From an uncultured Candidatus Saccharibacteria bacterium (GTDB taxonomy: Bacteria > Patescibacteriota > Minisyncoccia > Phycocordibacterales > EsbW-18), in assembly GCA_964447415.1 (NCBI GenBank), contig CAYUSN010000001.1, forward strand, positions 33,735-97,734: 64,000 nt of DNA, read 5' to 3'. Shown one piece after another: positions 12,685 through 30,787 of this stretch. Numbering within the stretch: the stretch's first letter is position 1; each line of letters starts with the position of its first letter. Below the pieces are notes generated by a model. That model saw only the letters and a list, made by a program, of their open reading frames with translations, did no database searches and was not told the origin of the DNA. A program made the position numbers and the translations under genes.

Positions 12685-12719
12685 CGTACTTTAGCACGGA
12701 GGTCAAAAAACGGCAAGAA

Positions 12720-13442: not shown

Positions 13443-13448
13443 ATATAT

Positions 13449-13718: not shown

Positions 13719-13796
13719 ATATCCATTGTGGGTGTTGAGAATTAAAAGTAAATAAGGTATCGTGCGCCTGCAAAATAGCGTAAAATGGTCCGCGTT

Positions 13797-13869: not shown

Positions 13870-13898
13870 CTGTTGTAGTAGACTGTCTGGTGAGACCT

Positions 13899-13970
13899 CC
13901 TCCCGTAGTTTAACGGATAGAACAGGGGCGTTCTAAGCCTTTGATGGGGGTTCGATTCCCTCCGGGAGGA
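13899..13970 (+). tRNA. tRNA-Arg (anticodon TCT)
   Basis: Acceptor CCTCCCG/CGGGAGG+A; D-loop AACGGATAG; anticodon loop GTTCTAA; T-loop TTCGATT. Confidence 0.75.
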
Positions 13971-13981
13971 CACGAGGAATC

Positions 13982-14299
13982 TTAGTACGGGTCAGGAATT
14001 GAAATACCGCCGTTGAGACGCGACTGGAACGTTGCGGCGCGTGCCGAAAACGCCGAGAGTACATCGCGGATGTGTTCTTTATCTACCTCCTGTGCGCCCG
14101 GCAACTCTAATGTCGATTCTATGACGCGGTTGCCGATGTTGCGTACGGAGAAATAAAAATAGAGTGACAGCGAAATACCGATGATGTTACCGACGGCAAA
14201 CAGCAGTAATAGTCGCGCCCATAATCCGCTATTTGTTCGTGCCACGAACATATTTCTGATTGCGGGGAGTATTTTTTTGTTCAGTCCGTCTTTTGCCAT
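13982..14299 (-). CDS. small membrane protein, hypothetical (possibly pilus-assembly-associated)
   Basis: Start moved to MAKDGLNKK (14299); one or two TM helices; immediately downstream of the pilM/N/O-like genes. Confidence 0.35.
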   Translation of the reverse strand: MAKDGLNKKILPAIRNMFVARTNSGLWARLLLLFAVGNIIGISLSLYFYFSVRNIGNRVIESTLELPGAQEVDKEHIRDVLSAFSARAATFQSRLNGGISIPDPY

Positions 14300-14304
14300 G
14301 CGTG

Positions 14305-14856
14305 TTATTGTTTCAATGTGATACGCACTGTTGCGCGCAACGCCCACCTCGGCTGCGGGGTGTCTTCATCAACACCCGACGTGTCGAGCGTCATTTGTGA
14401 AAGTGACGATTGGTACGGAAGTGCGTCAAGAAGCGACAATAGGTGGGAAACCGAGCGCCACGAACCTTCGGACATTACATTGACGACAAGCACCCCTTCA
14501 CGTGTCTGCGGGTCCTCATTTTCAACCTGCACCTGCAACACCGCAACCGGCGCCCCGACTGAAACACCGAAACCTTCCAACTCCTCAATGATCGTGATGA
14601 TGTCCTCCGGAGTTCGGAAAAAGTCTTTCACACCTTTTCGCTCCTCCGACAGCTCCGCAAGTATTCCCGCCGTGTCACGCACGCGCCGTTCAAGCTGTAT
14701 TTGCATCAGTAATTCTTCCTGTGTCGTTTGTATATGCGCATACTGCCGACGCGTCACAACCACCGCAACCACATACGCACCGATGAGTATCGCGCAGAAA
14801 AATGCCGTAACGTACAGCCGTATCTGTCGTGCCTTTTTTTCCTGTCCTATATTCAT
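14305..14856 (-). CDS. PilO-like type IV pilus assembly protein (single N-terminal TM + periplasmic domain)
   Basis: 183 aa; the topology and its position after the PilN-like gene fit PilO; only weak sequence signal. Confidence 0.4.
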   Translation of the reverse strand: MNIGQEKKARQIRLYVTAFFCAILIGAYVVAVVVTRRQYAHIQTTQEELLMQIQLERRVRDTAGILAELSEERKGVKDFFRTPEDIITIIEELEGFGVSVGAPVAVLQVQVENEDPQTREGVLVVNVMSEGSWRSVSHLLSLLDALPYQSSLSQMTLDTSGVDEDTPQPRWALRATVRITLKQ

Positions 14857-15473
14857 AGCACTGGTACTTCCTCCGCAACAGGGGCGGGGGTGTCTGTTAT
14901 ATACGACCCAAGCCCCACCGGCTCATCAAGGGACACGGTAAGGGTGAACTCAATGTTTTCGTTTTTTGCCAGACTTGATACCGGCACATCAACGCGTGAA
15001 AACAGCGGGGACTGTCGGAGTGCGTCTCCGAACGCAATGAGTGCCGCGCGGGTTGTTGCCGTTCCCAGTATTAAAACGGAAATTTCCTCGTTACCAAGAG
15101 AATATGCAAACTGCCGCACACTCACACCTTCCGGAATCCGCGGCGCAATATCCTCAAGAATTGAAGTCGCCGTACGACGTGAAAGCGACCCCTCAAGCAG
15201 CACGGACCGTTCCGACAGCTCAACAACCTCGCTTCCTCCGCTTTGTTTTCGCTGTAAATCAACAAGTATTTTGGTTGCTTTCAACTGATCATCAAAACCA
15301 CTCGCCCCCGACCACACAACGATAAAGGACGGGATAATAAAAAGTAGCGCAACAACAGCCGAACACATCAGCAGCAGCATACAAACAATCGCGACCCTTC
15401 GTCGGTGTTCCCACAGCACGCGCTTCGCGTCTTTTATTGGAAGCAGATTAACCACACGTCTATTGTATCGCAT
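14853..15473 (-). CDS. pilN: PilN-like type IV pilus assembly protein
   Basis: Start at MRYNRRVVNLLP (conserved N-terminal 'INLLP'-type motif), then a TM segment and a periplasmic domain. Confidence 0.6.
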   Translation of the reverse strand: MRYNRRVVNLLPIKDAKRVLWEHRRRVAIVCMLLLMCSAVVALLFIIPSFIVVWSGASGFDDQLKATKILVDLQRKQSGGSEVVELSERSVLLEGSLSRRTATSILEDIAPRIPEGVSVRQFAYSLGNEEISVLILGTATTRAALIAFGDALRQSPLFSRVDVPVSSLAKNENIEFTLTVSLDEPVGLGSYITDTPAPVAEEVPVL

Positions 15474-15535
15474 CCGGCACCTGTATACATACGCCGAAAA
15501 AAGAAAACCTGTGTACACGCGTCCTGCGTCGGCGA

Positions 15536-16636
15536 TTACTCGTCTTCGCGCAATGCAAGTCCGATCGCCGGAGCGTAGCCGAGTGATTCGGTTTCGGGTA
15601 ATTCAGGAATAAAGGTGTCAAATGAAAACGCATTCTCCCAAACGTTCCCTTTTGTAACCGGAATACGAAGCGCCCCTTCAAGGTGCTCGGGCAACCCGAC
15701 GATGTTTGCGTTCCCGCCCACAAGATACACCCGTTCGACAGGTTTATGTGCGACATCCATACCCTTAATGTCTTTGTGCGTCTGCCAATACACGATGTAC
15801 CGGTCGAGTTCATTGGAAAGTTTTTTGGCAAACGAAGTAAACGCCTCCTGCCCCATCGAATCGTCACGATACCGCAATCCTTGATTGTTTTTTATGTTCG
15901 TCAGATCCTCCGAGGAGGCGTCCGGGAGTACGCTCTGCAGCACCGCATCAATCTCATCGCCGCCGATATCAACGGTGGCGGTGAATCGCACCGCCTGTCC
16001 TTGTGCAATGGCGATACCTGACCGTTTCCGCCCGATGTCCACAATCATTGAAACCTCTTTTGTTTTTTTAGGAATTACCGCACGGGCAACCGCCTGCGCT
16101 TCTATTTCAAGCGACAACGGTTCGAGTCCCGCGGCAAACAGCAAATCCACGTACTCCTGCGCAATCTTCGTGGGGTACGCGGACACCGACACCATTTGCT
16201 GTCCCGGAATAAGCGGAGCACCGGGAACAACCTCAAAATCAATCACCGCGTTGTCCGCCGTCAGCGGCACATTTTCTTCAAGCTTAAACTGAAGTACTTC
16301 TCGAATCTCTTCGTCGGAAAGATGCCTCGGTACGTATGCCGGGAATATATACCCCTCCTCTTCAGGCAACGATGCACGCACAAAATGAATCCCATATTCC
16401 CGGGCCAGCTCCGAAAGCACTTCTACAAGCTTCTTTTTATCTACAATCTTCCCTCCCTCAACAACGCCGTGCGGAACGGAAAATGAAACGAACCGTTTCA
16501 GTTGTCTGCCGTGCTGACGCGTACGTGAGAGTTCGATACATTTGACCGAGTGGTCAGAAATGTCGAGCCCCACCGCAGGCATCAAAAGGTACGGGGGCGT
16601 GGGGAGCACCGAAAAGACCGCAGACGATAACTTCAT
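15536..16636 (-). CDS. pilM: type IV pilus assembly ATPase-fold protein PilM (actin-like)
   Basis: 366 aa; N-terminal 'VGLDISDHSVKCIEL' and an internal 'DIGRKRSGIAIAQG' actin/FtsA-like fold; followed by pilN/O-like genes. Confidence 0.7.
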   Translation of the reverse strand: MKLSSAVFSVLPTPPYLLMPAVGLDISDHSVKCIELSRTRQHGRQLKRFVSFSVPHGVVEGGKIVDKKKLVEVLSELAREYGIHFVRASLPEEEGYIFPAYVPRHLSDEEIREVLQFKLEENVPLTADNAVIDFEVVPGAPLIPGQQMVSVSAYPTKIAQEYVDLLFAAGLEPLSLEIEAQAVARAVIPKKTKEVSMIVDIGRKRSGIAIAQGQAVRFTATVDIGGDEIDAVLQSVLPDASSEDLTNIKNNQGLRYRDDSMGQEAFTSFAKKLSNELDRYIVYWQTHKDIKGMDVAHKPVERVYLVGGNANIVGLPEHLEGALRIPVTKGNVWENAFSFDTFIPELPETESLGYAPAIGLALREDE

Positions 16637-16645
16637 TCCTTTATT

Positions 16646-16990
16646 CTAACCTAAATGCGTGCCGGGTGGCATATCCGCTTCGGGGACAATGAATGAAAAC
16701 TGTTTGTTATCTCCTTCACCGATTGATGCGGCGAATAACATGCCGTTGCTCTCATACCCCTTGATTGTGCGCGGTTCAAGGTTATACACGAACGTTGTTT
16801 TCTTTCCGACAAGCGACTGCGGGTCGGCGACATACTGTTTAATCCCCGAAACAAGCTGACGAGGTTCCGCTTCACCGAAATCAACCATGAGCCGGAGCAG
16901 TTTATCCGTCTCGGGAATTTCCTCGACAGAAATAATCTGTCCGACGCGTATGTCTACTTTTTTAAAATCATCAAACGAGAGGTGCTCCAT
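16646..16990 (-). CDS. tRNA-binding domain protein (CsaA/Trbp111-like, EMAP fold)
   Basis: 'FKKVDIRVGQIISVEEIPETDKLLRLMVDFGE...RQLVSGI' matches the tRNA-binding OB-fold of MetG-C/CsaA. Confidence 0.7.
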   Translation of the reverse strand: MEHLSFDDFKKVDIRVGQIISVEEIPETDKLLRLMVDFGEAEPRQLVSGIKQYVADPQSLVGKKTTFVYNLEPRTIKGYESNGMLFAASIGEGDNKQFSFIVPEADMPPGTHLG

Positions 16991-16991
16991 A

Positions 16992-17378
16992 TCATTTTTG
17001 AAACCGTTTTTTGTCCAGAAACCGCTGTAGAATCACCGCGGCCGCCGACGCATCAATCATATCGTTTGTTCCTGTGAAACGCGACGCCTCCTGTGATGAG
17101 AGCCACTCCTGCTCGAAAATTACCGGCACATTGGCGGCGGCTTCCAGTTCTTTTTTGAACACCTGAATGCGTTCCATTATCGGATTATCGCCACCCTGCA
17201 GATTTGAAGAATACCCGAGCACGATGATGCTGGCGTTTTCTTTCCGCGCGAACGCCGCAATATCGTCTGCAAGCGTTTTTTTGCTCGGAAACACCGCATG
17301 CGGAAACGCAAGTGTTTCGCTTTGATCCGACAGCGCAATACCGACCCGTTTTTCTCCGTAATCAATCCCGAGAATCAT
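16992..17378 (-). CDS. ruvX: putative pre-16S rRNA nuclease / Holliday-junction-resolvase-like YqgF (RuvX)
   Basis: 'MILGIDYGEKRVGIALSD' YqgF N-terminal motif; 128 aa. Confidence 0.8.
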   Translation of the reverse strand: MILGIDYGEKRVGIALSDQSETLAFPHAVFPSKKTLADDIAAFARKENASIIVLGYSSNLQGGDNPIMERIQVFKKELEAAANVPVIFEQEWLSSQEASRFTGTNDMIDASAAAVILQRFLDKKRFQK

Positions 17379-17390
17379 GCAGTGCGCAGG

Positions 17391-17687
17391 TTATGTGTTC
17401 GGTGTGTTCGGTGTCTGCGGGGTGTTTTTCATCATGCTTCCGACTTTTTTCGGAAACAATGTGTCAAAATGAAGTTTTGCAAATCCGAACAAATACACAA
17501 TCTCAAGAATACCGACGGTGTTGATTACCAACAGTGCGATAAACCACCACCCCTGCTCCCGTCGTGATGAGTGCCACAGTGCTAGCCCCTTCCATACGAG
17601 AGACCAAAGCATGAGGATAATAAAAAACGGTGATGCCCACGGCACCCCACCGCCCCATCCGAGTCCCATTGCACTTCCAAAGTCCAT
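17391..17687 (-). CDS. small membrane protein, hypothetical
   Basis: 98 aa with 2-3 TM segments and a C-terminal PNT repeat. Confidence 0.4.
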   Translation of the reverse strand: MDFGSAMGLGWGGGVPWASPFFIILMLWSLVWKGLALWHSSRREQGWWFIALLVINTVGILEIVYLFGFAKLHFDTLFPKKVGSMMKNTPQTPNTPNT

Positions 17688-17722
17688 ATAAATGTATGTT
17701 ATGTTGCGAGTAATACTGCCGG

Positions 17723-17794
17723 TGCTCTCGAGAGGAATCGAACCTCTATTACAAGCTCCGCAAGCTTGCGTCCTATCCGTTGAACGACGAGAGC
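17723..17794 (-). tRNA. tRNA-Arg (anticodon GCG)
   Basis: Reverse complement GCTCTCG..AACGGATAG..CAAGC-TTGCGGA-GCTTG..AGAGGTTCGATTCCTCT-CGAGAGC-A; a GCG anticodon is unusual (the usual bacterial one is ACG). Confidence 0.7.
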
Positions 17795-17828
17795 GCGTCG
17801 CTACTGTATCAGAAAAAGAGATGCGGTT

Positions 17829-18287
17829 CTAGAACCCGAAAAGTTCAAGAAGTTTGTCGGAAAACGTTTCGTGTACCTCCGCCTCTTCAAGATACCGCGA
17901 GAGTGTTTCACGAACATCATCAGCATCAATCCCGTCGAGAAGAATCACGATATGCGGCATGGCAACTTTTCGCGACGTAAGCACAAGGCGGTTCGGAAAC
18001 AGATGCTCCTGCACCCAAAATGACTGGAGTGTTGCGTACGGAAAGAGTGTGGTATCGATTGCAATGCCGCGGTCTGTGATATCACACCTGACCATTTTCG
18101 GATGACGGAGCGCGTGCAAACCAAGCGCAACCGCGCCGATTGCAATTACAAGTCCGAACAGCAGATTACCAAACAAGATGGCCACCACTACCCCGCCGAC
18201 GGCGATAATACCGAGCCCCCAGAACCAGTCTGAGCTCCGCGGCGTATGCTCATATTCAAGCGCCTCCCACGACAAGTGCGTCTGCAT
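17829..18287 (-). CDS. membrane protein, hypothetical (start corrected to MQTHLSWEAL)
   Basis: The tracked 274-aa ORF runs antisense through two tRNA-type genes; downstream of ATG 18287 there are two TM helices plus a soluble domain. Confidence 0.45.
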   Translation of the reverse strand: MQTHLSWEALEYEHTPRSSDWFWGLGIIAVGGVVVAILFGNLLFGLVIAIGAVALGLHALRHPKMVRCDITDRGIAIDTTLFPYATLQSFWVQEHLFPNRLVLTSRKVAMPHIVILLDGIDADDVRETLSRYLEEAEVHETFSDKLLELFGF

Positions 18288-18353
18288 ATATATGTAAGCG
18301 TACCATGTTTGCGTGTTGCTCAAAGAGCGCTTTGTTAGTATCTTCTTGGTACT

Positions 18354-18441
18354 GGTAGGGTGGCGGAGTGGAGAAAAGCCGAACTGCTTCGGGTTTTGTC
18401 CGAAGTGAAGCGAGGTGGGAGACCACGGAGCCGCCCTACTA
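18354..18441 (+). ncRNA. tRNA-like element; its first 18 nt are identical to the adjacent tRNA-Ser but it is not a canonical cloverleaf (pseudo-tRNA or small structured RNA?)
   Basis: GGTAGGGTGGCGGAGTGG..., an 11-bp closing helix with the 3' end ...CCGCCCTACT-A, internal hairpins CTTCGG-GTTTTGT-CCGAAG and GTGG-GAGA-CCAC; no T-loop TTCGA and no D-stem. Confidence 0.3.
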
Positions 18442-18465
18442 GAAAACGGTCCGAGGTATATCGTT

Positions 18466-18552
18466 GGTAGGGTGGCGGAGTGGTCTAACGCACCTGTCTT
18501 GAAAACAGGAGTCCCTTCACGGGGACCGTGAGTTCGAATCTCACCCCTACCG
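18466..18552 (+). tRNA. tRNA-Ser (anticodon TGA), type II
   Basis: Acceptor GGTAGGG/CCCTACC+G; anticodon CCTGT-CTTGAAA-ACAGG; long variable arm; T-loop TTCGAAT. Confidence 0.8.
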
Positions 18553-18612
18553 CATAAATGAAGTACGACCGCCACATCGTGGCGGTCGTTGTGACATCCT
18601 GGAGGACACCAC

Positions 18613-18948
18613 CTAGCGGTCGGGCTTGGAGAGCACCTTCTGAAGCCCCGCAACCATCTGCTTGACCTTGGGGTCCTTCCGCCCCGATGGTTTGCGGCCG
18701 AGAACTTCGTTCTTGCTCAGCCGCCTGATGACATCGAACTTGTCCCCAAACACCGTGAACTGTAGCCGCGCATCCTTCTCCTGAGATCGGAGCGCGTACT
18801 GAGCTTCCACGAGTGTCACCTCGTAGCCGTCACGCGGCACACCGTCGCTGCACGGAAGGTTGTTCTTGATCGCCTCGTCAGTCCGACCCATACCAAGCCG
18901 CTCGTTTGTATATGCGTCGTGCGGCGCCACATAGTATCGAGTCATCAC
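18613..18948 (-). CDS. hypothetical protein
   Basis: 111-aa GC-rich ORF between the tRNAs and rpsT; no motif recognised. Confidence 0.3.
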   Translation of the reverse strand: MMTRYYVAPHDAYTNERLGMGRTDEAIKNNLPCSDGVPRDGYEVTLVEAQYALRSQEKDARLQFTVFGDKFDVIRRLSKNEVLGRKPSGRKDPKVKQMVAGLQKVLSKPDR

Positions 18949-19017
18949 TGCCTCCTTTCTGTCTGGCGAGACGATACCACCGGCATACGAAAAACGCCAG
19001 CCGTTTCTGACTGGTGT

Positions 19018-19284
19018 TTATTTTTCTGATTTTTTGAGAAGCGCCGAGAGGCGTGACTTCTTTCGTGCGGCGGTGTTTTTCTTGATGACACCGCGCTTCG
19101 CCGCTTTATCGATTGCTTTATAGGCGGCCGCGAGTTTTGTCTTTGCTTCTTTTGCTTTGCCGTCGGCAACCAAATCGCGAATCTCTTTTACCACGTCTTT
19201 CATGGCACGCGCGCGGCGCACATTAAACACCCGCTTGCGGGCGCTGTTTCGCATTGCTTTTTTTGCCTGTTGCAGTATCGGCAT
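19018..19284 (-). CDS. rpsT: 30S ribosomal protein S20
   Basis: 88 aa; 'AKKAMRNSARKRVFNVRRARAMKD...' plus the C-terminal 'KNTAARKKSRL' S20 pattern. Confidence 0.85.
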   Translation of the reverse strand: MPILQQAKKAMRNSARKRVFNVRRARAMKDVVKEIRDLVADGKAKEAKTKLAAAYKAIDKAAKRGVIKKNTAARKKSRLSALLKKSEK

Positions 19285-19339
19285 AACGCAGAAAGAATAC
19301 CAGAATGAACCTTTACGTCAAGTTATGTATACTGAAGGC

Positions 19340-19909
19340 ATGATTTCCCACATCAAGGGCACCGTGCTCCACACCGAACCGGGGAGTGTCATTGTTGACG
19401 TCGGCGGCGTCGGCTATACCGTGCACGTGGCACGTGATACGGCTTCAAAAATAAAAATCGGCGGCACTGCGCTTTTCTGGACACATATGGCGGTACGCGA
19501 AACGGCAATGGAGCTGTTCGGGTTTTCCGACCGTGATGAACTCGCCTTCTTTGAAATGCTCCTGGGTGTTCCCGGTATCGGTCCCCGCTCAGCGCTTGCG
19601 GTCTTGTCGCTTGCAAAACCCGAGACGCTCAAAAAGGCGATTGCGGAGGAAAATATCACCTACCTCACCAAAGTATCCGGCATCGGCAAGAAAACCGCCG
19701 AACGAATTATCGTGACGCTCAAAGACAAGTTCACAAAAGACGGCGGAATCGCCGGCGAGTTAGGCGACGACGCCGACGTGGTTGAAGTGCTTGTTTCACT
19801 CGGCTACTCGCAGACACAGGCGCGCGATGCGGTGAAAAAAATTGATGAAACAAAAGTCGGGGCCTCCGAGCGCGTTAAAGACGCGCTCAAAATCCTCGGC
19901 GGCAGATAA
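19340..19909 (+). CDS. ruvA: Holliday junction DNA helicase subunit RuvA
   Basis: 'MISHIKGTV...VDVGGVGYTVHV', HhH 'LLGVPGIGPRSALAVL', 'VSGIGKKTAERII'; the tracked ORF starts earlier but that part overlaps rpsT. Confidence 0.85.
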   Translation: MISHIKGTVLHTEPGSVIVDVGGVGYTVHVARDTASKIKIGGTALFWTHMAVRETAMELFGFSDRDELAFFEMLLGVPGIGPRSALAVLSLAKPETLKKAIAEENITYLTKVSGIGKKTAERIIVTLKDKFTKDGGIAGELGDDADVVEVLVSLGYSQTQARDAVKKIDETKVGASERVKDALKILGGR

Positions 19910-19911
19910 CT

Positions 19912-21201
19912 ATGCTCAACACAATCCTGCGGACGATCGAACGGTTCATACCGAAACGGCTCTACAAGTGGGGTCAGCCGATTTACCACTGGAAACTGTC
20001 ACTTTTGGGAGCCCTTGTGTACCGCTTCCCTTCCCGCACATTCAAGATAGTTGCCGTCACCGGCACGAAGGGAAAATCCTCTACCGTTGAGTTCATCAAT
20101 GCAATTTTGGAAGAAGCGGGACTCGCCACCGCGGTGTTAAGCACGATTCATTTCAAAATAGGCGAGACGGACGAACGTAATCTCTACAAGATGACCATCC
20201 CCGGACGCTTTTTCGTACAGCGCTTTTTGCGGCGCGCGGTGAATGCGCAGTGCGACTGGGCAATTCTTGAGATGACGTCGGAGGGCGCAAAGCAGTTCCG
20301 CCACAAATGGATTGATTTTGACGCGCTCGTGTTTACCAACCTCGCACCCGAGCATATCGAGTCACACGGTTCATATGAAAAATACCGCGACGCAAAACTC
20401 TCCATTGCGCGGCAACTTGCGAAATCGCACAAACCGGCAACGGTGATTGTGGCAAACGCCGATGACCCCGAAGGTAAACTGTTTTTGGATATCGGCACCT
20501 CCTATGCGCTCCCCTTCTCTCTTTCAGACGCGCACGTGCTGCGCATAGGAAAAACATCCTCAACATTTTCATACAAAGGTGTACCGTTTACCGTTCCGCT
20601 CGCCGGAGAATTTAACGTCTACAATGCGCTCGCTGCCGTCGTATTTGCGGAGAGTCAGAACATTCCGCTTGAAACCTGCGCACGGGGTATTGCAAAGCTC
20701 AAAAAAATCCGCGGACGCGCGGAGTTTATCGAAAACAATCTCGGTATTGATATCGTTGTTGACTACGCACACACACCCGACTCTCTCGAGGCACTCTACA
20801 AAGCGTTTTCCGATTCAAAAAATATCTGCGTGTTGGGCAACACCGGCGGAGGACGCGACGTATGGAAGCGTCCGAATATGGCGGCAATCGCGGAGAAGCA
20901 CTGTGCGCACATGATTCTCACCAATGAAGATCCGTACGACGAGGACCCGCACAAAATCATCGACGAAATGGCGGCGGGCGTGAAAGACAAAAATAAACTT
21001 CACATCATTTTGGACCGCCGGGAAGCGATCGCCGAAGCGCTCAAGAGCGCGCCGTATCTGCAGAAGGAACACCCGAAACACCGTGTTGCAGTGCTCATTA
21101 CCGGCAAAGGCACCGACCCCTACATCATGGGGCCGCGTGGCACCAAATTGCCGTGGGATGATGCGACGGTTGTGCGGGAGGAGCTAAAGAAACTACAATA
21201 A
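19912..21201 (+). CDS. Mur ligase family protein, MurE-like (short N-terminal domain)
   Basis: 'KIVAVTGTKGKSST' P-loop, 'DYAHTPDSLEAL' MurE-type motif, C-terminal 'ITGKGTDPY'; 429 aa. Confidence 0.6.
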   Translation: MLNTILRTIERFIPKRLYKWGQPIYHWKLSLLGALVYRFPSRTFKIVAVTGTKGKSSTVEFINAILEEAGLATAVLSTIHFKIGETDERNLYKMTIPGRFFVQRFLRRAVNAQCDWAILEMTSEGAKQFRHKWIDFDALVFTNLAPEHIESHGSYEKYRDAKLSIARQLAKSHKPATVIVANADDPEGKLFLDIGTSYALPFSLSDAHVLRIGKTSSTFSYKGVPFTVPLAGEFNVYNALAAVVFAESQNIPLETCARGIAKLKKIRGRAEFIENNLGIDIVVDYAHTPDSLEALYKAFSDSKNICVLGNTGGGRDVWKRPNMAAIAEKHCAHMILTNEDPYDEDPHKIIDEMAAGVKDKNKLHIILDRREAIAEALKSAPYLQKEHPKHRVAVLITGKGTDPYIMGPRGTKLPWDDATVVREELKKLQ

Positions 21202-21205
21202 AGAT

Positions 21206-21895
21206 ATGAAAGATTTGGTCAAAGTACTCTTCTTCGTCATTGCGGGCATTTTCTTCATTTCCTACGTGCAGGATGCGGGCATCGGTTCAATCGGATTTTC
21301 CGGCAACAGCACGTCGTTCTCCGCCGGCAATACATCCTACACACGGTCATACGACACGAATGATGACGGTGTTGTTTCTGATTGGGAATACCGGCAAGGA
21401 GAAAAGGATCGCATTGAGGACGAGCTCAAGCGTCTGCGCCGTGATCTGGCACGCACACTGTCCGACACACACGAATCTCCGTATGCGGATTTTGTAACGC
21501 TCTCCCGTGGAAACACCGACGCGCGCAATCCGGACAAAGAATACGTTGAAATTGCGGCAAACTACTCAAACAAGGATTCCGTCATAATCTCGGAGTGGAC
21601 GCTCCAAAGCCTTGCTTCGGGAAAAACGGCAACGATACACAAAGGCATTCCCCCTGCCCGCGAAGGACTCTCGCCGACCAACGAATATACAATTAAACTC
21701 ATCGCGGGGAAAAAGCTTTTCGTCATCTCCGGAGACCAGCGCTCACGGACATCATTCGTTGAAGATACGAGCGCATGGGCCGACAAAGAATGGATTGCCG
21801 AGTTGCGTGAGGACGATGATTTGTGGGACGACGAACACGACGCCGTCGTGTTGTTTGACGCAAACGGACTCGTTGTGGACTACATAAGCTATTAG
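21206..21895 (+). CDS. membrane-anchored hypothetical protein
   Basis: N-terminal TM (VLFFVIAGIFFISYV) followed by a soluble domain. Confidence 0.4.
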   Translation: MKDLVKVLFFVIAGIFFISYVQDAGIGSIGFSGNSTSFSAGNTSYTRSYDTNDDGVVSDWEYRQGEKDRIEDELKRLRRDLARTLSDTHESPYADFVTLSRGNTDARNPDKEYVEIAANYSNKDSVIISEWTLQSLASGKTATIHKGIPPAREGLSPTNEYTIKLIAGKKLFVISGDQRSRTSFVEDTSAWADKEWIAELREDDDLWDDEHDAVVLFDANGLVVDYISY

Positions 21896-22419
21896 GCACC
21901 GCCCGTAGAAAACAGGATGATACCTGCGGCAACGGAGACGTTGAGCGACTCTTTCTTTCCGTGCATGGGAATTTCAATCACCTCGTCGCACAGCTGAAGC
22001 ACCTCTTTTGAAAGTCCTTTTGTTTCTTCACCAAACACAAACACTGTCGGTTTTTGATACGAAAACATTTTGAAAGCTTTTGCACGCGCGTCCTGCTCTA
22101 CCGCCACCACACGCACGCCTTCTTTTTTCAGCGCCGCAATTGCCTCCTGTGTGGTCGGCACATGTTCCCATGCAACTGAATTTTGCGCACCAAGCGCGAC
22201 CTTCGCCAAATCTTTGCGGGCTCTGCCGAACCGGTCGACGGGCGCGGGCGTGACACCGCAGAGATAGAGTTTGGAAACACCGGCGGCGTCGCATGTTCGA
22301 AAAAGAGAACCGACGTTGTGAACGCTTCGAACGTTGTCGAGAATCACAAAGGTTTTTTTCATAAACGTATCGTCACGAGTTACTAGGGATTTTACTTCAC
22401 TTCGTTCATAAAATCCCAA
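21892..22419 (-). CDS. SpoU/TrmH-family RNA 2'-O-methyltransferase
   Basis: 'VILDNVRSVHNVGSLFRTCDAAGV' and the 'GEETKGLS...IPMHG...SLNVSVAAGIIL' SPOUT motifs; alternative start at MKKTF (22362). Confidence 0.75.
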   Translation of the reverse strand: MGFYERSEVKSLVTRDDTFMKKTFVILDNVRSVHNVGSLFRTCDAAGVSKLYLCGVTPAPVDRFGRARKDLAKVALGAQNSVAWEHVPTTQEAIAALKKEGVRVVAVEQDARAKAFKMFSYQKPTVFVFGEETKGLSKEVLQLCDEVIEIPMHGKKESLNVSVAAGIILFSTGGA

Positions 22420-22513
22420 GTACTCGCGACCCCGACTCGGCTCCCCCTGCGGTGGATGCCTCCGTCTCGGACAGCTAAAAATCAGTCCGCAGGGACTGAT
22501 TTTCTAAACGCTG

Positions 22514-22587
22514 TCCGCCCAGTAGGATTCGAACCTACGACCCTCTGCTTAAAAGGCAGGTGCTCTACCAGGCTGAGCTATGGGCGG
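22514..22587 (-). tRNA. tRNA-Lys (anticodon TTT)
   Basis: Reverse complement CCGCCCA-TA-GCTCAGCCTGGTAGAGC-A-CCTGC-CTTTTAA-GCAGA-GGGTC-GTAGGTTCGAATCCTAC-TGGGCGG-A; C1:G72 start. Confidence 0.75.
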
Positions 22588-23350: not shown

Positions 23351-23406
23351 TGTAAATTCGAAATACGAATATCGAAATACGAAACAATATCTACATTCGA
23401 AATATT

Positions 23407-25839
23407 TTAAACATTCGGGTTTTGGTTATTCGGATTTGTTTCGAGTTTCGTTTTTCGTGCTTCGTGCTTAACAAACCCCTTCATTTCGCTCCACCGGCGG
23501 CCCACGGCTGCCTCGGCGACAATCGGCACACCGTCACGCATTTCATCCGGCATCGCCTTCTCCATAATCTCTTTAATTTTCGGCACCACGGAGAGCACCG
23601 CATCGTCGGCAATTTCATAGATAAGCTCATCGTGAATTTGCAGCACCAGACGCACCCGCTCGGACAGCCCCTTCTCAAGAATATATTTCTCCGCATCAAT
23701 CATCGCAATTTTAATGATGTCGGCGGACGTCCCCTGAATAGGCGCGTTCACCGCCTGGCGCTCCGCCTCGGCGCGAATAAACGGCAAAGATGAGCGCACA
23801 CCTGGAAGCTGCCGGCGGCGGCCGAACATCGTCTCAGTGTACCCCTTCGCACGCGCATCGGCTTTTGCCTTTGTAATGTACGCGGTGAGTCCGATGAATG
23901 TGTTTTCGTATTCCGCGAGATACTTCTGCGCATCGGCGCGCGGCATCTGCGCGGTGGAGGCAAGCGCATTGGCACCCATGCCGTAAATAATGCCGAAGTT
24001 GATGACCTTTGCAGTGCGGCGCATGGTGGCCGTCACTTCCTCCGGTTTAACGTCAAAAATTTCCGCAGCAACAGTTGTGTGAATGTCGCCGCCTTCGTGA
24101 AATGTTTTCACGAGCCGCTCATCGCGTGACAGAATCGCGGCGATGCGAAGCTCAATTTGCGAGTAATCCAGCGCGCACAGGGTAAAACCTTTCTGTGCGA
24201 CAAATGCACCGCGCACCGCGCGTCCCAGCTCCGTCTTGATGGGAATGTTCTGCAGATTCGGATTCTGTGACGAGAGACGGCCTGTCGCCGCACCCGTCTG
24301 CACGAACGTGGTATGCAAACGACCGTCAACACCGACGAGTTTCGGAAACGCATCAATGTAGGTGGAAAGGAGTTTTTGCAGTTCACGATACTGTAAAATT
24401 TCGGGAATAATCGGGTGTGCGTCGGCAAGCTTGGTGAGTTCGGATTCACGCGTGGAGCGCTGGCCGGTTGATGTTTTTTTACCGCCTTTCAGTCCCAGTT
24501 TTTCAAACAGCACGTCGCCCAACTGTTTCGGAGAGTTGATGTTAAATTCCCCGCCCGCACGTTTCCAGATTTTTTTCTCCAGCGCGGAAAGTTCTTTGTG
24601 ATAGTCACGCGAAAGCTCTTTGAGAAAGGCGGTATCAAGCGCCACGCCCGTCTCTTTCATCTTTGCGAGAATCGGCGAAAGCGGTTTTTCTATATTTTCA
24701 TACACATCCCACAACCCTTCTTCTTTGATACGCGTAAGTGCTTTTTCGCGCGCCGAGGAAAGCGAGAGTGTTTTGGTAAACGAGAGAATGTCCTCCTCCG
24801 ACGGCGTGGTGAGGTCCGAGTTCAAGAGCCAGACGGCAACCTTCAACTCCTCCATCTCTTCTTCCGAAAGCGCGGGGGACGCATCAGACGGCGTATCGGG
24901 AAACAGTTTCTCGGACATTTTGAACTGTCCCCGGACACGCGCGGACAGCGAACGGAATCCGAGCTCATCAAACAGCGTAAGTACTTTTTTCGGGTCAAAT
25001 GCCTCCTTCCACTCCACCCCAGGCACGGAGAACTCTATCGGTGCGTCACGGCGTATCGTGCCGAGCATTTTGCTAAACTGTGCCTCTTCTTTTCCCTCTT
25101 TAAGCATTTCAATGACACGTTTGGTGATGCCCGCCTTTTCAAATGCGCCTTCGTCTTTTGTAAGGCGTTTGTACATATCTTCGATGCTCCCGAATTCCGT
25201 AATCAGCGTTGTCGCGGTCTTCTCTCCGATTCCTTTGATGCCGGGGATGTTGTCGGAGGGATCGCCGCGCAAACCCTTATAGTCAGGCAGGAGCTCCGGT
25301 CCGAAACCATAGCGCTTTTGCACGTCTTCCTCGTTGTACAACACAGTATCCTGAATTCCTTTACGCAGCGTAAACACCTTTACGCGCTCATCGTCGACAA
25401 GCTGCAGTGTGTCCGTATCCCCTGATGCAATAACCACTTCTATTTCTTTCTTCCGTTTCAACAACTCAACGATCGTGCCGATAATATCGTCGGCCTCGAA
25501 TCCTTCTTTCTGATACATAGGAACGGCAAATGCCGAAAGAATATCCCTTGAGCGCTCAATTTGTGCGATAAGCTCGTCGTCGGCTTTCGCGCGCCCCGCT
25601 TTGTATCCGTCAAACGCATCGTGCCGGTACGTCGGCTTCGGCAAATCATACGCCGCAACAATGTAGTCCGGCTTCAGGTCGTTGATGAATTTCAGAAGCA
25701 TCGCAGAGAGTCCGTACAGCGCGCCCGTCGGCTCGCCCGTTGCGGATGTAAAGTCAGGCAATGCGTGGTACGCGCGGTGAATGATGGCGTGTGCGTCAAG
25801 CACAACGAGTCGTTTTTTCTTTGTGTCTTTTTTAGTCAT
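23407..25839 (-). CDS. polA: DNA polymerase I (5'-3' exonuclease + polymerase; apparently no 3'-5' exonuclease domain)
   Basis: Start taken at MTKKD; 'VLDAHAIIHRAYHALP' 5'-nuclease; 'DYSQIELRIAA', 'QIHDELIYE', 'RRTAKVINFGIIYG' Pol A motifs; ~25-aa C-terminal extension beyond the usual ...WxEAH-type end. Confidence 0.9.
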   Translation of the reverse strand: MTKKDTKKKRLVVLDAHAIIHRAYHALPDFTSATGEPTGALYGLSAMLLKFINDLKPDYIVAAYDLPKPTYRHDAFDGYKAGRAKADDELIAQIERSRDILSAFAVPMYQKEGFEADDIIGTIVELLKRKKEIEVVIASGDTDTLQLVDDERVKVFTLRKGIQDTVLYNEEDVQKRYGFGPELLPDYKGLRGDPSDNIPGIKGIGEKTATTLITEFGSIEDMYKRLTKDEGAFEKAGITKRVIEMLKEGKEEAQFSKMLGTIRRDAPIEFSVPGVEWKEAFDPKKVLTLFDELGFRSLSARVRGQFKMSEKLFPDTPSDASPALSEEEMEELKVAVWLLNSDLTTPSEEDILSFTKTLSLSSAREKALTRIKEEGLWDVYENIEKPLSPILAKMKETGVALDTAFLKELSRDYHKELSALEKKIWKRAGGEFNINSPKQLGDVLFEKLGLKGGKKTSTGQRSTRESELTKLADAHPIIPEILQYRELQKLLSTYIDAFPKLVGVDGRLHTTFVQTGAATGRLSSQNPNLQNIPIKTELGRAVRGAFVAQKGFTLCALDYSQIELRIAAILSRDERLVKTFHEGGDIHTTVAAEIFDVKPEEVTATMRRTAKVINFGIIYGMGANALASTAQMPRADAQKYLAEYENTFIGLTAYITKAKADARAKGYTETMFGRRRQLPGVRSSLPFIRAEAERQAVNAPIQGTSADIIKIAMIDAEKYILEKGLSERVRLVLQIHDELIYEIADDAVLSVVPKIKEIMEKAMPDEMRDGVPIVAEAAVGRRWSEMKGFVKHEARKTKLETNPNNQNPNV

Positions 25840-26636: not shown

Positions 26637-26726
26637 ACCGCGGCTCATGCCGCACCACCACCCGTGCACCCGTCACGCGGTGGTGTGTTTTTCCAAAAAA
26701 CACTCCGTATTTGCTACACTACTGAT

Positions 26727-28451
26727 ATGGTTCAATTCGACGCGGAGAAAGAAGAGAAACAAAAACATAAACTGCAGCAGCTTCGTGAGCAGGAAGAAGA
26801 AGACGCGATGCGGATGCTTTCCGAGAAGTACGGACTGCAGTACATCGACCTGTCCGTCACCTCAATAGAGCCGGACGCGCTCATCATTGTTCCCGAACAG
26901 GATGCGCGTGAAGGCCAGCTTGCGGTATTCGATAAAAAAAACAAAACCCTGCTTGTCGCCGCGCATTCACCAGACAGTGATGCGACAAAAACAGTTCTTG
27001 CTCAACTTGCGGAGAAAGGGTACACATCTGAGTTGTATCTGACATCCACAAAAAGTCTTTCGTTTGCGTGGGAGCGGTACAAAGATCTCTCCTATTCGTC
27101 GGGAAGCACGAAAGGACTGCTTGACGTCGGCGGCGAAGACATCTCGTCGTTTGTCGAATCCGTGCACACCATCCAAGACGTCACAAAATACATCGAGGAA
27201 ACACTGAAGCTCAACCGTGCACACCGAACATCGCGCATCGTTGAAGTGCTCCTCGGCTCGGGACTTGCAACAAAGGCATCCGACATCCACATCGAACCGG
27301 AAGAGGTCGGTGTGCGCGTGCGCATGCGTCTTGACGGCGTGCTCCAGGATGTCGCAACACTCGATGCTGAAACGTACAAACTCGTGCTCTCACGCATTAA
27401 ACTGCTTTCCACACTAAAACTCAACGTCACCAACGAAGCGCAAGACGGTCGCTTTTCCATCCACTTTAAAGAAGTCAACATTGAAATACGCACCTCCATT
27501 CTTCCGGGCAACTACGGAGAATCAATCGTCATGCGTATTCTTAACCCCTCTTCTATTTCAGTGGACATCACCTCACTGGGCATGAGTGAGAACCTATATA
27601 AGGTCGTGCAGGACGCCATCCGCAAACCGAACGGTATGATTCTCACCACCGGTCCGACCGGCTCCGGTAAGACAACGACGCTGTACGCGTTTCTCAAAAG
27701 CGTGCACACACCCGACGTTAAAATCATCACCATTGAAGACCCGGTTGAATACCACCTGAAAGGAATCGTGCAGACGCAGGTGGACTCCGCGCGCGATTAC
27801 ACCTTTTCTTCAGGACTGCGCGCCGCGCTCCGTCAGGACCCTGACATCATCATGGTCGGTGAAATCCGCGACAACGAGACCGCCGAGATTGCCATTCACG
27901 CGGCACTCACCGGGCACCTCGTGTTCTCCACGCTCCACACCAACTCCGCCTCCGGCGCATTCACCCGCCTGATTGACGTCGGTATCAACCCGCGCATTTT
28001 GGGTTCCGCACTCAACCTCGCGCTGGCGCAGCGCCTTGTCCGAACATTGTGTGAGAAATGTAAAGTCGAAGTACCGCTTGAAGGAGAGGAGCGCGCGACT
28101 GTTGAACGCATTCTTGGAACTGTTTTCGATAAGGAAAAAATTGCAAGCGTGCAGAAGGAAAAGGTGTGGCATCCGAAGGAAGGTGGCTGTGAAGCGTGCA
28201 ACGGATTGGGTTACAAAGGACGCATCGGTATTCACGAGGGCATCATTATGGATGCGGCAATTGAGGATGTCGTCGAAACGTCGCCGTCTGAGCGTGAAAT
28301 AAAAAAAGCGGCAATACCGCAGGGTATCCTCACGCTGCCGCAAGACGCCGTCGTAAAAATTTTGCAGGGAAAGACAACCGTGGAGGAGGTCGCCCGTGTC
28401 GTAGACCTCTCGGAGATGCCGCCTTCGGCGGAAACCACGGACACGGTCTAA
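26727..28451 (+). CDS. pilB: type IV pilus assembly ATPase PilB / GspE family
   Basis: 'ILTTGPTGSGKTTTLYA' Walker A, 'IMVGEIRD' Walker B/Asp box, His box 'GHLVFSTLHTN', and the tetracysteine 'CEKCK...CEACNGLGYKGR'. Confidence 0.85.
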   Translation: MVQFDAEKEEKQKHKLQQLREQEEEDAMRMLSEKYGLQYIDLSVTSIEPDALIIVPEQDAREGQLAVFDKKNKTLLVAAHSPDSDATKTVLAQLAEKGYTSELYLTSTKSLSFAWERYKDLSYSSGSTKGLLDVGGEDISSFVESVHTIQDVTKYIEETLKLNRAHRTSRIVEVLLGSGLATKASDIHIEPEEVGVRVRMRLDGVLQDVATLDAETYKLVLSRIKLLSTLKLNVTNEAQDGRFSIHFKEVNIEIRTSILPGNYGESIVMRILNPSSISVDITSLGMSENLYKVVQDAIRKPNGMILTTGPTGSGKTTTLYAFLKSVHTPDVKIITIEDPVEYHLKGIVQTQVDSARDYTFSSGLRAALRQDPDIIMVGEIRDNETAEIAIHAALTGHLVFSTLHTNSASGAFTRLIDVGINPRILGSALNLALAQRLVRTLCEKCKVEVPLEGEERATVERILGTVFDKEKIASVQKEKVWHPKEGGCEACNGLGYKGRIGIHEGIIMDAAIEDVVETSPSEREIKKAAIPQGILTLPQDAVVKILQGKTTVEEVARVVDLSEMPPSAETTDTV

Positions 28452-28468
28452 AAACTTGCCAGAATGCG

Positions 28469-28499
28469 AAACCCCCGCTCCAGTATGGAGCGGGGGTTT
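28469..28499 (+). terminator. 13-bp perfect stem-loop immediately after pilB (no U-tract)
   Basis: AAACCCCCGCTCC-agtat-GGAGCGGGGGTTT. Confidence 0.4.
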
Positions 28500-28544
28500 C
28501 AAACGTTACAAAAAGTCGTAGTATGAGGTCAGATAGTCAGAAAG

Positions 28545-28706
28545 AGGAGAAATCTCTAAGCAAGACCACGAGTTTTGTTAAGGATACTGTTCGCTGCCCC
28601 GACATAATCGAGACAACCAACGGGTCCTCACGAAACTTGTGCATGAGGACCATGACGCTTGCTTAGAGGTTTCTCGTCTCGGAGACGGTAACCCTCGTAC
28701 CGTGTT
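28545..28706 (+). ncRNA. candidate small structured RNA (6S-like closing helix) with its own intrinsic terminator
   Basis: 18-bp long-range helix 28549-28566 / 28660-28677 (one G.U); internal 8-bp hairpin 28625-28652; palindrome CGTCTCGGAGACG; 3' ACGGTA-accctcg-TACCGT + TTTTT at ~28683-28706. Confidence 0.35.
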
Positions 28707-28749
28707 TTTGTATTAAAGAGCAGGAGTATCCTAGCATATTAGTTTAGAT

Positions 28750-29751
28750 ATGTCAAGTACCACCCAAAACGACCCTTCGGATGCTTTTTTTGACGCGTCG
28801 CTGCGTCCTGTGCTTTGGGACGAGTACGTCGGTCAGCCGCAGACGAAGGAAAATCTCCGCATTCTCCTCTCCGCTGCAAAGGAACGTGGACACGCACCCG
28901 AACACATACTCTTTTACGGACCGGCGGGCTTAGGAAAAACCACGCTTGCCCACCTCATTGCACGCGAACTCGGCGGCAACATCAAAATAACCTCCGGACC
29001 CGCCATTGAACGCGTCGGTGACCTTGCGTCTATCCTCACCAACCTCGCCCCCGGCGATATTCTCTTCATCGACGAGATTCACCGGCTCAACAAAGCTATC
29101 GAGGAAATCCTCTACCCTGCTATGGAGTCAGGCCGGCTGGACATCATCATCGGCAAAGGACCGTCGGCGCGCACCGTACAGCTCGAGCTTCCGCCGTTTA
29201 CCCTCGTGGCGGCAACCACACGTGTCGCACTTCTCTCCTCTCCGCTTCGCTCGCGCTTCTCCGGAGGCACGTTCCGCCTTGAGTTTTACTCCGAGGAAGA
29301 AATTCTGAATATTTTGAAACGCTCCGCACACCTGCTCGGCGTTTCAACGGACACCAACGCCCTGCGCGAACTTGCAAAGCGCTCCCGCGCTACACCGCGC
29401 ACCGCAAACTATCTTTTGAAACGCGCGCGCGACTACGCGCAGGTACACAAAAAAGAACTGTCGCTTCCCGTCGTGCACGAAGCGCTTGCACTTTTAGGTG
29501 TTGATGACAAAGGACTCACGCCGACGGACAAGAAGTTGTTATTGCTCATTATTGAAACATTCAACGGTGGTCCCGTCGGACTCTCCACACTTGCCGCGTC
29601 GCTCTCGGAAGACCCCGCCACCATTGAAGAGGTGTACGAGCCGTACCTGATGCGGCTCGGATTCATTGAACGGTCTCCCCGCGGGCGCATCATCACCCAT
29701 AAGGGACGCGCACATGTCGGCACGCCGGCGCCGCAGGAAAATCTTCTGTAA
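28750..29751 (+). CDS. ruvB: Holliday junction ATP-dependent DNA helicase RuvB
   Basis: 'LFYGPAGLGKTTLA' Walker A, 'ILFIDEIHRL' Walker B, sensor and winged-helix C-terminus. Confidence 0.9.
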   Translation: MSSTTQNDPSDAFFDASLRPVLWDEYVGQPQTKENLRILLSAAKERGHAPEHILFYGPAGLGKTTLAHLIARELGGNIKITSGPAIERVGDLASILTNLAPGDILFIDEIHRLNKAIEEILYPAMESGRLDIIIGKGPSARTVQLELPPFTLVAATTRVALLSSPLRSRFSGGTFRLEFYSEEEILNILKRSAHLLGVSTDTNALRELAKRSRATPRTANYLLKRARDYAQVHKKELSLPVVHEALALLGVDDKGLTPTDKKLLLLIIETFNGGPVGLSTLAASLSEDPATIEEVYEPYLMRLGFIERSPRGRIITHKGRAHVGTPAPQENLL

Positions 29752-29755
29752 TATC

Positions 29756-30280
29756 ATGTCCGGTCACAATAAATGGTCGCAAATTAAAGAAAAGAAAGGC
29801 GCCACGGATGCAAAGAAAAGCGCGTTGTTTACCAAATTGGTGAAACTCATCAAGACAGAGGCGCGGCTTGCACATGGCGACCTTAATTCCCCGTCACTGA
29901 AAGCGGCAATTGAGAAAGCAAAAGCGGCGAACATGCCGAAAGACAACATCGACCGTGCAATTTCGTCCGCAAACACAACCGCAGATGAAAAAGTGACGTA
30001 CGAGGCATACGGACCGGGAGGCTGCGCGCTCATCATCGAGGGACTTACCGACTCACGTAACCGCACCTCACAGGAAATCAAGCATGTGCTTTCAAAAAAC
30101 GGACACGCTCTTGCCGCACCCGGTTCGGCGCTTTGGGCGTTTTCTAAAAATCAAGACGGTGTCTGGCAGCCTGCAACCACTGTTCCGCTTTCAGACGACG
30201 ATAGCGCAAAACTTTCAGTACTCATCGAGCAGTTGGAAGATATGGATGACGTACAAGACGTTTACACCAACGCGGAGTAA
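29756..30280 (+). CDS. yebC: YebC/PmpR-family transcriptional regulator (short form)
   Basis: 'MSGHNKWSQIKEKKG...DAKKSALFTKL' YebC N-terminal signature; lies between ruvB and ruvC as in many bacteria. Confidence 0.8.
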   Translation: MSGHNKWSQIKEKKGATDAKKSALFTKLVKLIKTEARLAHGDLNSPSLKAAIEKAKAANMPKDNIDRAISSANTTADEKVTYEAYGPGGCALIIEGLTDSRNRTSQEIKHVLSKNGHALAAPGSALWAFSKNQDGVWQPATTVPLSDDDSAKLSVLIEQLEDMDDVQDVYTNAE

Positions 30281-30289: not shown

Positions 30290-30787
30290 ATGAAAGTGCT
30301 CGGCATTGATCCCGGATACGACCGCCTCGGACTGGCGCTTCTTGAAGGAACCCGCCAACACCACACACTGTTGTTTTCGGAGTGTTTTGAAACAGACCCG
30401 AAAGATCCGTTTGAGATCCGTCTGCACCGCGCCGTCTCGTATGTGCAAAAAATTTTAAAGACGCACACACCGGATACTGTTGCGCTTGAAACACTTTTCT
30501 TCAGCAAAAACCAAAAAACAGCCATGCATGTTGCGGAAACACGCGGCGCACTGTTGTTTGCAATCACCGATGCGGGCGCTTCAGTCGTGCAGCACTCCCC
30601 GCAAGAGGTAAAGGTTGCTGTTGCCGGAAACGGGCGCGGGAGTAAAGATGATGTCGCACACATGCTGCACAAACTACTTCCGCTTCCCTCAAAAAAAATG
30701 CGTGATGATGAATATGACGCGATTGCGGTGGCGCTCACCTGTATGGTAAGCGGGCGGCCGAAAGATACTCTGTCCACAAGGAAATAG
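30290..30787 (+). CDS. ruvC: crossover junction endodeoxyribonuclease RuvC
   Basis: 'MKVLGIDPGYDRLGLAL' RNase-H-fold N-terminus; 165 aa. Confidence 0.85.
   Translation: MKVLGIDPGYDRLGLALLEGTRQHHTLLFSECFETDPKDPFEIRLHRAVSYVQKILKTHTPDTVALETLFFSKNQKTAMHVAETRGALLFAITDAGASVVQHSPQEVKVAVAGNGRGSKDDVAHMLHKLLPLPSKKMRDDEYDAIAVALTCMVSGRPKDTLSTRK

Follow-up and report, generated by a model that had tools for sequence, protein, structure and literature searches.

What occupies the 298-nt spacer between a pilB-like gene and ruvB in the genome of an uncultured Candidatus Saccharibacteria bacterium, and from which strand is it read? We analyzed a 64,000-nt stretch of this genome (contig CAYUSN010000001.1, positions 33,735 to 97,734; hereafter the window), for which a first-pass annotation had proposed a plus-strand small RNA (sRNA) of 6S-like architecture in that spacer, ending in its own intrinsic terminator. 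To our knowledge, almost none of the noncoding RNAs of the Patescibacteria (candidate phyla radiation), a group with tiny genomes, have been characterized. Sequence comparison makes the spacer element a well-supported member of a new structured RNA family of Patescibacteria, for which we coin the name ruvB-facing RNA. The family RNA is very probably encoded antisense to ruvB, and the copy in the window is likely to be encoded on the corresponding minus strand. On the whole, we lean somewhat toward a reading in which a stable folded sRNA is made from the minus strand and its synthesis is negatively coupled to the ruvB-yebC-ruvC operon through a promoter embedded in the ruvB start codon.

Distribution and linkage to ruvB

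Among 185,579 species genomes, the RuvB proteins closest to that of the window were 66 to 71% identical to it, and all came from metagenome-assembled genomes (MAGs) of Patescibacteria/candidate phyla radiation. The two helix arms of the element (AAATCTCTAAGCAAT / ATTGCTTAGAGATTT) and its inner motifs precede ruvB in 11 of those closest genomes, even where the other neighboring gene differs, and close relatives of the window organism (RuvB 78 to 92% identical) carry the element before ruvB-yebC-ruvC in 10 of 10 cases. A metagenome scan with a pattern made of the two arm cores alone, and blind to ruvB, showed that at least 120 loci carry the element (the matches listed are loci L081 to L200). 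With element orientation defined relative to ruvB, ruvB lies on the same side, 33 to 355 nt away, in 110/110 of the listed loci with enough DNA, the remaining 10 being cut by a contig end; counts of the AGGAT/GTCCT motifs were unfit for this purpose, the motifs having covaried in variants. With 12 Patescibacteria genomes, at least 120 metagenome loci, and 10 close relatives of the window organism, the family comprises more than 130 Patescibacteria sequences, and in these loci, with otherwise shuffled neighbors, the element was never found away from ruvB. No copy was found in 2.9 million viral contigs.

The family may extend further. Weak matches to the covariance model described below in a Sungiibacteriota MAG (L011:3745-3918, 34 bits) and a Paceibacterota MAG (L013:3559-3720, 27 bits) suggest more divergent members, and in the latter the element lies about 280 nt from a ruvB whose start differs from ATGTCAAG, the start typical of the family. 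Six further Patescibacteria ruvB loci (L012, L019, L024, L028, L054, and L064) gave no match to the model.

At the gathering score, none of the 4,227 families in Rfam 15 matched the element, be it the window copy or those of 12 typical loci. At E ≤ 10, the window copy and a typical copy (L092) yielded, on either strand, just chance-level partial matches to terminator hairpins, so that the scan for 6S, signal recognition particle (SRP), and other known RNAs suggested in the first-pass annotation returned no known family on either strand. Neither this RNA nor a 6S RNA of these phyla was mentioned in the full-text literature that we searched.

A conserved fold supported by covariation

We aligned 65 diverse copies, read antisense to ruvB, with MAFFT and derived a consensus with RNAalifold. 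Compensatory double changes occur in 25 of its 43 pairs; the covariation that the first-pass annotation had proposed to look for in related intergenic regions is thus present. A covariance model was built from the same alignment and a consensus of single-sequence folds and was used to realign 98 hits (96 distinct rows). In this model-fitted alignment, 86.5% of the cells hold standard pairs, compared with 70.9% in shuffles and 39 to 49% with slid partners, compensatory changes occur in 49 of 62 pairs, and the observed values were reached by 0 of 500 shuffles. Given that the model shaped this alignment and that two rows come from hits on the wrong strand, we take the MAFFT/RNAalifold result as the independent support. 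That a structured, conserved RNA family exists here we consider hardly in doubt.

The fold is closed by P1, a helix of 22 to 28 bp with compensatory changes in 21 of its 28 pairs across the family; variation is almost absent from its 14-bp core, and the outer part shows free covariation. Inside P1 stand a small hairpin, H2, and a long arm, H3. In H3, the AGGA/UCCU helix is invariant, the asymmetric internal loop is conserved, and the inner helix is rich in G.U pairs. H2 is variable, poorly aligned, and weakly supported in the main family, and in the alignment of the window's sublineage two sequences have G-C in place of A-U at one of its four pairs. The main family has a further hairpin, H4, which abuts the 3' strand of P1 and shows compensatory changes in 8 of 9 pairs. 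H4 is missing throughout the lineage of the window, where about 2 nt join H3 to P1 on the 3' side, and the window copy accordingly scores 53 bits against the covariance model with H4 deleted. Holding the window copy to the family pairing costs 1.6 kcal/mol (−68.4 versus a minimum-energy value of −70.0).

Much of what had been seen in the single sequence is recovered here in a family context. The 18-bp long-range helix with one G.U pair and 93 nt enclosed was found as described and coincides with P1, and its arm sequence occurs at just these two sites in the 64 kb (0.04 expected by chance). The 8-bp hairpin noted inside it can form as well, and yet it is an alternative pairing that is not conserved in relatives: it overlaps the AGGA of the conserved AGGA/UCCU helix and competes with that helix in H3. 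The more general claims of an independent, conserved, structured sRNA gene devoid of protein-coding potential both hold, the former through covariation, conservation, and a predicted promoter of its own. Regarding the latter, the small open reading frames (ORFs) of the spacer (47 amino acids on the plus strand and 38 on the minus strand) have no Pfam match and are not conserved; the plus-strand ORF ranges from 4 to 59 codons in relatives and lacks its ATG in two. A small-protein gene was rejected on these grounds.

Strand of the RNA

The window alone does not reveal the strand. Its spacer folds at −121 kcal/mol on the plus strand, compared with −75 ± 4.8 in 200 shuffles (z = −9.6), and z is −10.2 on the minus strand; the structure far exceeds chance expectation, but the window sequence by itself cannot assign the strand. 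In the family, four independent lines of evidence point to the minus strand, namely, the asymmetry between G.U and A.C pairs, the folding energies, a U-run following P1, and a family-wide promoter.

Where Watson-Crick pairs form the majority in a column, G.U pairs outnumber A.C pairs by 335 to 116 when the element is read antisense to ruvB (27 columns versus 9; P = 0.004). One P1 pair is GU in 45 copies, GC in 45, and AU in 6, and two H3 pairs are UG in 78 and GU in 77; these GU and UG pairs become A.C mismatches if read on the ruvB strand. The antisense strand is the more stable in 112 of the 120 copies listed, by a mean of 12.6 kcal/mol, of which a part stems from G+U richness, since shuffled sequences differ by 5.9 kcal/mol. 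After control for composition with mononucleotide shuffles, z is −7.9 for the antisense strand and −6.0 for the sense strand and is lower for the antisense strand in 25 of 30 copies. RNAalifold recovered P1 alone from a plus-strand alignment of all 120 listed copies, and further structure appeared after the strand was switched. The covariance model also scores higher on the minus strand, a preference that is uninformative because the model was trained in that orientation and that we did not use as evidence.

The flanks of P1 are asymmetric as well. In the antisense orientation, 72 of 108 main-family loci have four or more consecutive U's beginning no more than 14 nt past the P1 core, and in the largest subfamily P1 and a following U7 form a textbook intrinsic terminator. 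On the ruvB strand of the main family, P1 is preceded by an A-run, is not followed by a U-run, and is often abutted by an upstream terminator.

A predicted promoter in the ruvB start codon

Two motifs are conserved at ruvB: its start, ATGTCAAG, and TAGCATA, located about 12 nt upstream of the ATG. On the opposite strand, they read as TTGACA, a 17-nt spacer ending in T-R-T-G-n, and TAnnnT, i.e., as a predicted promoter (TTGACA-N17-TAnnnT) lying over ruvB codons 1 to 3 and directed away from ruvB. TGTC[AT]A is present at the ruvB start in 116/122 loci, and in the window this is the sole sigma-70-like site on either strand between 28380 and 28820, with 10 of 12 matches plus the TG. We examined the site further in a logo of 115 unique loci, which was anchored on TGTCAA and in which the other columns were unselected. 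The counts in these columns are T 92, R 98, T 99, G 100, n, and then T 101, A 101, n, n, n, T 104, a pattern of conservation typical of a sigma-70 −10 element that is extended in the Gram-positive style. At position 7 after the −10 hexamer, where transcription is predicted to start, 93/115 loci have a purine, and ruvB begins with ATG, GTG, or TTG in 113/115. In the sublineage of the window, the start region is conserved as GYUCUUU (AAAGARC on the plus strand; 28716-28721 in the window, and L201-L211); this is not so in the main family.

From this promoter, RNA polymerase would start near 28721 and move away from ruvB through a short leader into the folded domain (P1, H2, H3, and, in most relatives, H4), and the RNA would end either in the U-rich stretch after P1 or at the GC-rich hairpin near pilB (28469-28501). 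The 3' end is uncertain in the window because the stretch at 28533-28546 is merely U/C-rich. The RNA is predicted to be about 180 to 255 nt long there, i.e., about 185 nt if it ends at 28546-28533 and about 255 nt if it ends at 28501-28469; the shortest relatives have a predicted RNA of about 160 to 175 nt.

The first-pass annotation had placed the RNA on the plus strand, a placement disfavored by the family-wide asymmetry, folding energies, U-tract, and promoter, with the qualification that a plus-strand transcript may exist in addition in the sublineage of the window. The terminator assigned to that RNA is present as a plus-strand hairpin and T-run at 28685-28709, but it lies inside the 5' leader of the minus-strand RNA; being on the plus strand and within this leader, it is not the terminator of the sRNA. 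Read on the minus strand, the same hairpin has an A-run before it and no U's after it.

Proposed coupling to ruvB expression

On the plus strand, 54 of 102 loci have TGCTATAAT, a near-perfect extended −10 candidate (TGnTATAAT), at a distance of 55 or 77 nt upstream of the ruvB ATG, compared with 12 in a matched control on the other strand. The motif sits between the element and the sRNA promoter. The two distances (−55 and −77) are discrete in the spacers of L081-L200 (e.g., L092, L100, L101, and L118), which suggests two subfamily-specific spacer architectures; a second TGATAC box is often found at −54 in these spacers. With the promoters facing each other, the ruvB and sRNA transcripts would overlap by about 10 to 35 nt at their 5' ends if TGCTATAAT is used and over the whole element if a TAGTAT box upstream of the element, discussed below, is used.

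Based on this geometry, we hypothesize that polymerase bound at the sRNA promoter covers the ruvB start region and that firing of this promoter hinders ruvB-yebC-ruvC through promoter occlusion or polymerase collision, together with antisense pairing to the 5' region of ruvB, while the stable folded domain accumulates and probably binds a protein. We put functional coupling of the sRNA to ruvB expression at roughly an even chance; that the element was never separated from ruvB in more than 130 loci with variable neighbors argues for it. An extension, which we consider quite improbable, is that the folded RNA serves as a protein-binding decoy or sensor, a branched, rod-like nucleic acid mimic bound by RuvB, RuvC, RuvA, or YebC; if true, it would constitute an RNA-based feedback loop on Holliday junction processing in Patescibacteria, with its promoter in the ruvB start codon.

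IS10 (RNA-OUT/RNA-IN) offers a known example of a cis-antisense RNA whose promoter faces that of its target at the 5' end of the target gene, and interference between promoters in this arrangement is known from pR and pL of phage 186. The system described here resembles these in that its promoter is embedded in the start region of the target, points in the opposite direction, and faces a candidate ruvB promoter in about half of the family. It differs in that the sRNA starts about 29 nt before the ATG and leaves the ruvB start codon and ribosome-binding region uncovered, in that the bulk of the sRNA is a large conserved fold outside the overlap, and in that the target is a chromosomal repair operon rather than a transposase or a phage switch.

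Alternative explanations

Several observations weigh against this reading. The TTGACA of the promoter logo served as its anchor, the invariance of the P1 core among L081-L200 was imposed by the search pattern, the start, end, and abundance of the sRNA are all predicted, and the minus strand of the window carries no clean U-tract terminator. More specifically, the sublineage of the window (11 sequences, namely, the window, L201, and L203-L211) bears signals on the other strand. A plus-strand TAGTAT box, 8 to 14 nt before the element and 16 nt after CTTTC[AT][AT], is found in 10 of its 11 loci, and the eleventh has TAAAAT, which keeps TAnnnT; the box is not a start-codon context, as the ORF that would follow is not conserved. 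A plus-strand hairpin and T-run lie 3' of the element in about 5/11 loci, including the window, 10/11 carry a C.A mismatch in P1 that pairs as U.G when read on the plus strand, the plus strand is the more stable in 4/11, and G.U:A.C is just 55:33 in favor of the minus strand, counting 1x1 mismatches. These features, and the failure of the scan of 28380-28820 to find any other plus-strand promoter for ruvB, would fit a functional RNA on the plus strand running from about 28531 to 28685-28709, either as a riboswitch- or attenuator-like 5' leader of ruvB or as a plus-strand sRNA, or, in a weaker form, a sense/antisense pair transcribed from both strands. The element resembles a riboswitch or protein-binding leader in its place directly before ruvB, in its P1-closed multihelix junction with conserved junction nucleotides, and, in the window, in the terminator-like hairpin preceding the gene. 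Yet the strand signal of the family runs the other way, the A-run before P1 in the main family, the lack of a U-run after it, and the terminator often abutting it upstream do not suit a plus-strand transcript, TAGTAT is not enriched in the main family (11 versus 8 on the other strand), and the minus-strand promoter is kept in 11/11 sublineage loci. Further, the candidate ruvB promoter is located 3' of the element in 54/102 loci, so the element cannot be a ruvB leader there, and riboswitch P1 helices are far shorter and less rigid than the invariant 22 to 28 bp observed here. We rejected a ruvB riboswitch or leader for the family on the strand evidence (G.U:A.C ratio, energies, and z) and the position of the ruvB promoter. 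In the sublineage of the window, the plus strand may also be transcribed, as a long ruvB leader with an attenuator or as a complementary sRNA; overall, we regard a functional plus-strand RNA as unlikely.

The main rival to ruvB coupling accepts the minus-strand RNA and denies its regulatory role: a trans-acting housekeeping or protein-binding RNA may have been held at ruvB by the overlap of its promoter with the start codon. The regulatory link to ruvB is drawn from geometry, promoter interference needs no conserved complex fold, and the strict synteny could have been frozen by that overlap. The complex fold with invariant nucleotides and conserved G.U pairs, the strong and constitutive-looking promoter, and the contrast between a ruvB promoter whose position varies by subfamily and an RNA and promoter that do not vary all suit such a housekeeping RNA, but promoters re-evolve easily, and an RNA free of ties to ruvB would not be expected to stay beside it in more than 130 loci with shuffled neighbors or to recur face to face with a ruvB promoter; we consider it a possible but rather doubtful alternative. 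A further rival is 6S RNA (ssrS, RF00013), to whose architecture the first-pass annotation had likened the element, or else a functional analogue, an open-promoter mimic sequestering RNA polymerase. The standalone gene of about 160 to 200 nt, in itself not specific to 6S RNA, the ends paired in a long closing helix, and the strong housekeeping-type promoter are shared with 6S RNA, and no 6S RNA is annotated in the window or the examined loci. However, no match to RF00013 or related families was obtained at E ≤ 10 for the window and typical copies, the interior is a multistem junction of covarying hairpins rather than the open central bubble of 6S RNA, the lineage of the window has almost no unpaired 3' side, and P1 is perfect and sequence invariant, unlike the bulged, sequence-variable stems of 6S RNA. 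We therefore rejected 6S RNA as an identification, and either form of this proposal appears very improbable. Even less probable is a DNA-level element, such as a mobile inverted repeat, a cruciform, or paired protein-binding sites controlling ruvB. The two 14-bp arm cores are nearly invariant, which is seldom seen in an RNA helix and could be read that way; on the other hand, the window has one copy, every copy sits at the same locus, compensatory changes lengthen P1 on its outer side and back three inner helices, and a strand-asymmetric G.U pattern is meaningless for double-stranded DNA. Mobile repeats (MITE or IS remnants) and uptake-sequence-like repeats were rejected since the arms are unique in the 64 kb, 110/110 copies stand at ruvB, and no viral copy was found.

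Motif resemblances to SRP RNA, Y RNA, a tRNA-like cloverleaf, retron msr/msd, and twister-sister were set aside as unsupported, and no Ro or reverse transcriptase partner gene is adjacent. Among orphan noncoding RNA classes (raiA, OLE, ROOL, and HEARO), the element finds parallels in its lineage-restricted covarying fold and invariant loop or bulge nucleotides, and it differs in being smaller than most of them, in its absolute linkage to one gene, and in having its promoter in a start codon.

The window locus

The features of the locus are listed in Table 1. The ruvB-yebC-ruvC order recurs in all close relatives examined, with no ruvA adjacent. Beside ruvC, one relative (L208:2713-3007) has a gene with 23S-rRNA-intervening-sequence-protein/bAvd domains; the bAvd family has been linked to diversity-generating retroelements.

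The hairpin that follows pilB is present as first described, with a stem of 14 bp instead of 13 bp. It probably terminates pilB and possibly also the minus-strand RNA. It has no free U-run on either side because its UUUC/GAAA ends sit inside the stem, and on the minus strand it accounts for weak partial Rfam matches to terminator hairpins. Its distance to the TAGTAT box is a fixed 16 nt in most of the sublineage, and it may serve both as a terminator and within a −35-like region.

Table 1. Genes, predicted transcription signals, and structural features around the pilB-ruvB spacer (window coordinates)
Feature	Position	Strand	Description
PilB-like ORF	26664-28451		Type II/IV secretion ATPase, PilB/GspE kind; Pfam T2SSE, E = 1e-115
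GC-rich hairpin	28469-28501		Perfect, 14 bp; GAAACCCCCGCUCC/GGAGCGGGGGUUUC; between pilB and element
TAGTAT −10-like box	28519-28524	+	13 nt before element, 16 nt after TTTCAA (28497-28502); candidate promoter, start near 28531
U-rich stretch	28533-28546	−	UUUCUCCUCUUUCU; at and after P1 3' end; possible termination zone
P1, 3' strand	28542-28566	−	H4 absent here, 26 model positions reduced to 2 nt
18-bp long-range helix	28547-28564 with 28658-28675		One T.G pair; 93 nt enclosed
H3, long arm	28567-28641	−	AGGA/UCCU helix, asymmetric internal loop, G.U-rich inner helix
8-bp hairpin	28623-28630 with 28644-28651		GGTCCTCA/TGAGGACC; alternative pairing
H2, small hairpin	28642-28654	−	CAUG-GUCCU-CAUG; constrained fold
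P1, 5' strand	28657-28680	−	Core AACCUCUAAGCAAG; constrained fold
Predicted 5' leader	28681-28721	−	About 40 nt; inferred start about 28721 (G), 7 nt after −10
Terminator-like site	28685-28709	+	6-bp hairpin 28685-28703, ACGGTA-ACCCTCG-TACCGT, then GTTTTTG; preceded by CGTCTCGGAGACG; consensus scan
Extended −10 (predicted)	28728-28736	−	TG 28736-28735, C, TAGGAT 28733-28728; 17 nt after −35
−35 TTGACA (predicted)	28751-28756	−	Reverse complement of ruvB codons 1-3 (A-TGTCAA-G)
ruvB	28750-29751	+	ATG at 28750; Pfam RuvB_N/RuvB_C; first gene of ruvB-yebC-ruvC
TACO1/YebC-family gene	within 29666-30280		3' of ruvB; Pfam
ruvC	30290-30787		3' of yebC; Pfam

Elsewhere in the window, seven tRNA genes lie over about 12 kb (10753-22587; Rfam gathering matches), and no rRNA, SRP, RNase P, tmRNA, or 6S gene was detected in the 64 kb by the Rfam scan at the gathering score. 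The family model has one further match, at 23361-23462 on the plus strand (17.7 bits, E = 0.34), in or beside an 868-amino-acid minus-strand ORF; it is probably due to chance.

Implications

With the ruvB-facing RNA, the Patescibacteria gain an RNA class supported by covariation. Its members, more than 130 in number, measure about 160 nt and have neither an Rfam 15 match nor a mention in the literature searched. The analysis also illustrates that a near-palindromic RNA gene folds both ways, so that its strand can be read only from the comparative G.U/A.C asymmetry and promoter logos. The sRNA is tied to the first gene of the ruvB-yebC-ruvC recombination-repair operon in all loci with enough DNA, its predicted promoter being written into the ruvB start codon. 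If the RNA controls this operon, it would represent a new form of regulation of Holliday junction processing in bacteria that show no obvious sign of the usual damage-response regulator; otherwise, it would count as a new and probably protein-bound orphan RNA of a major uncultivated lineage.

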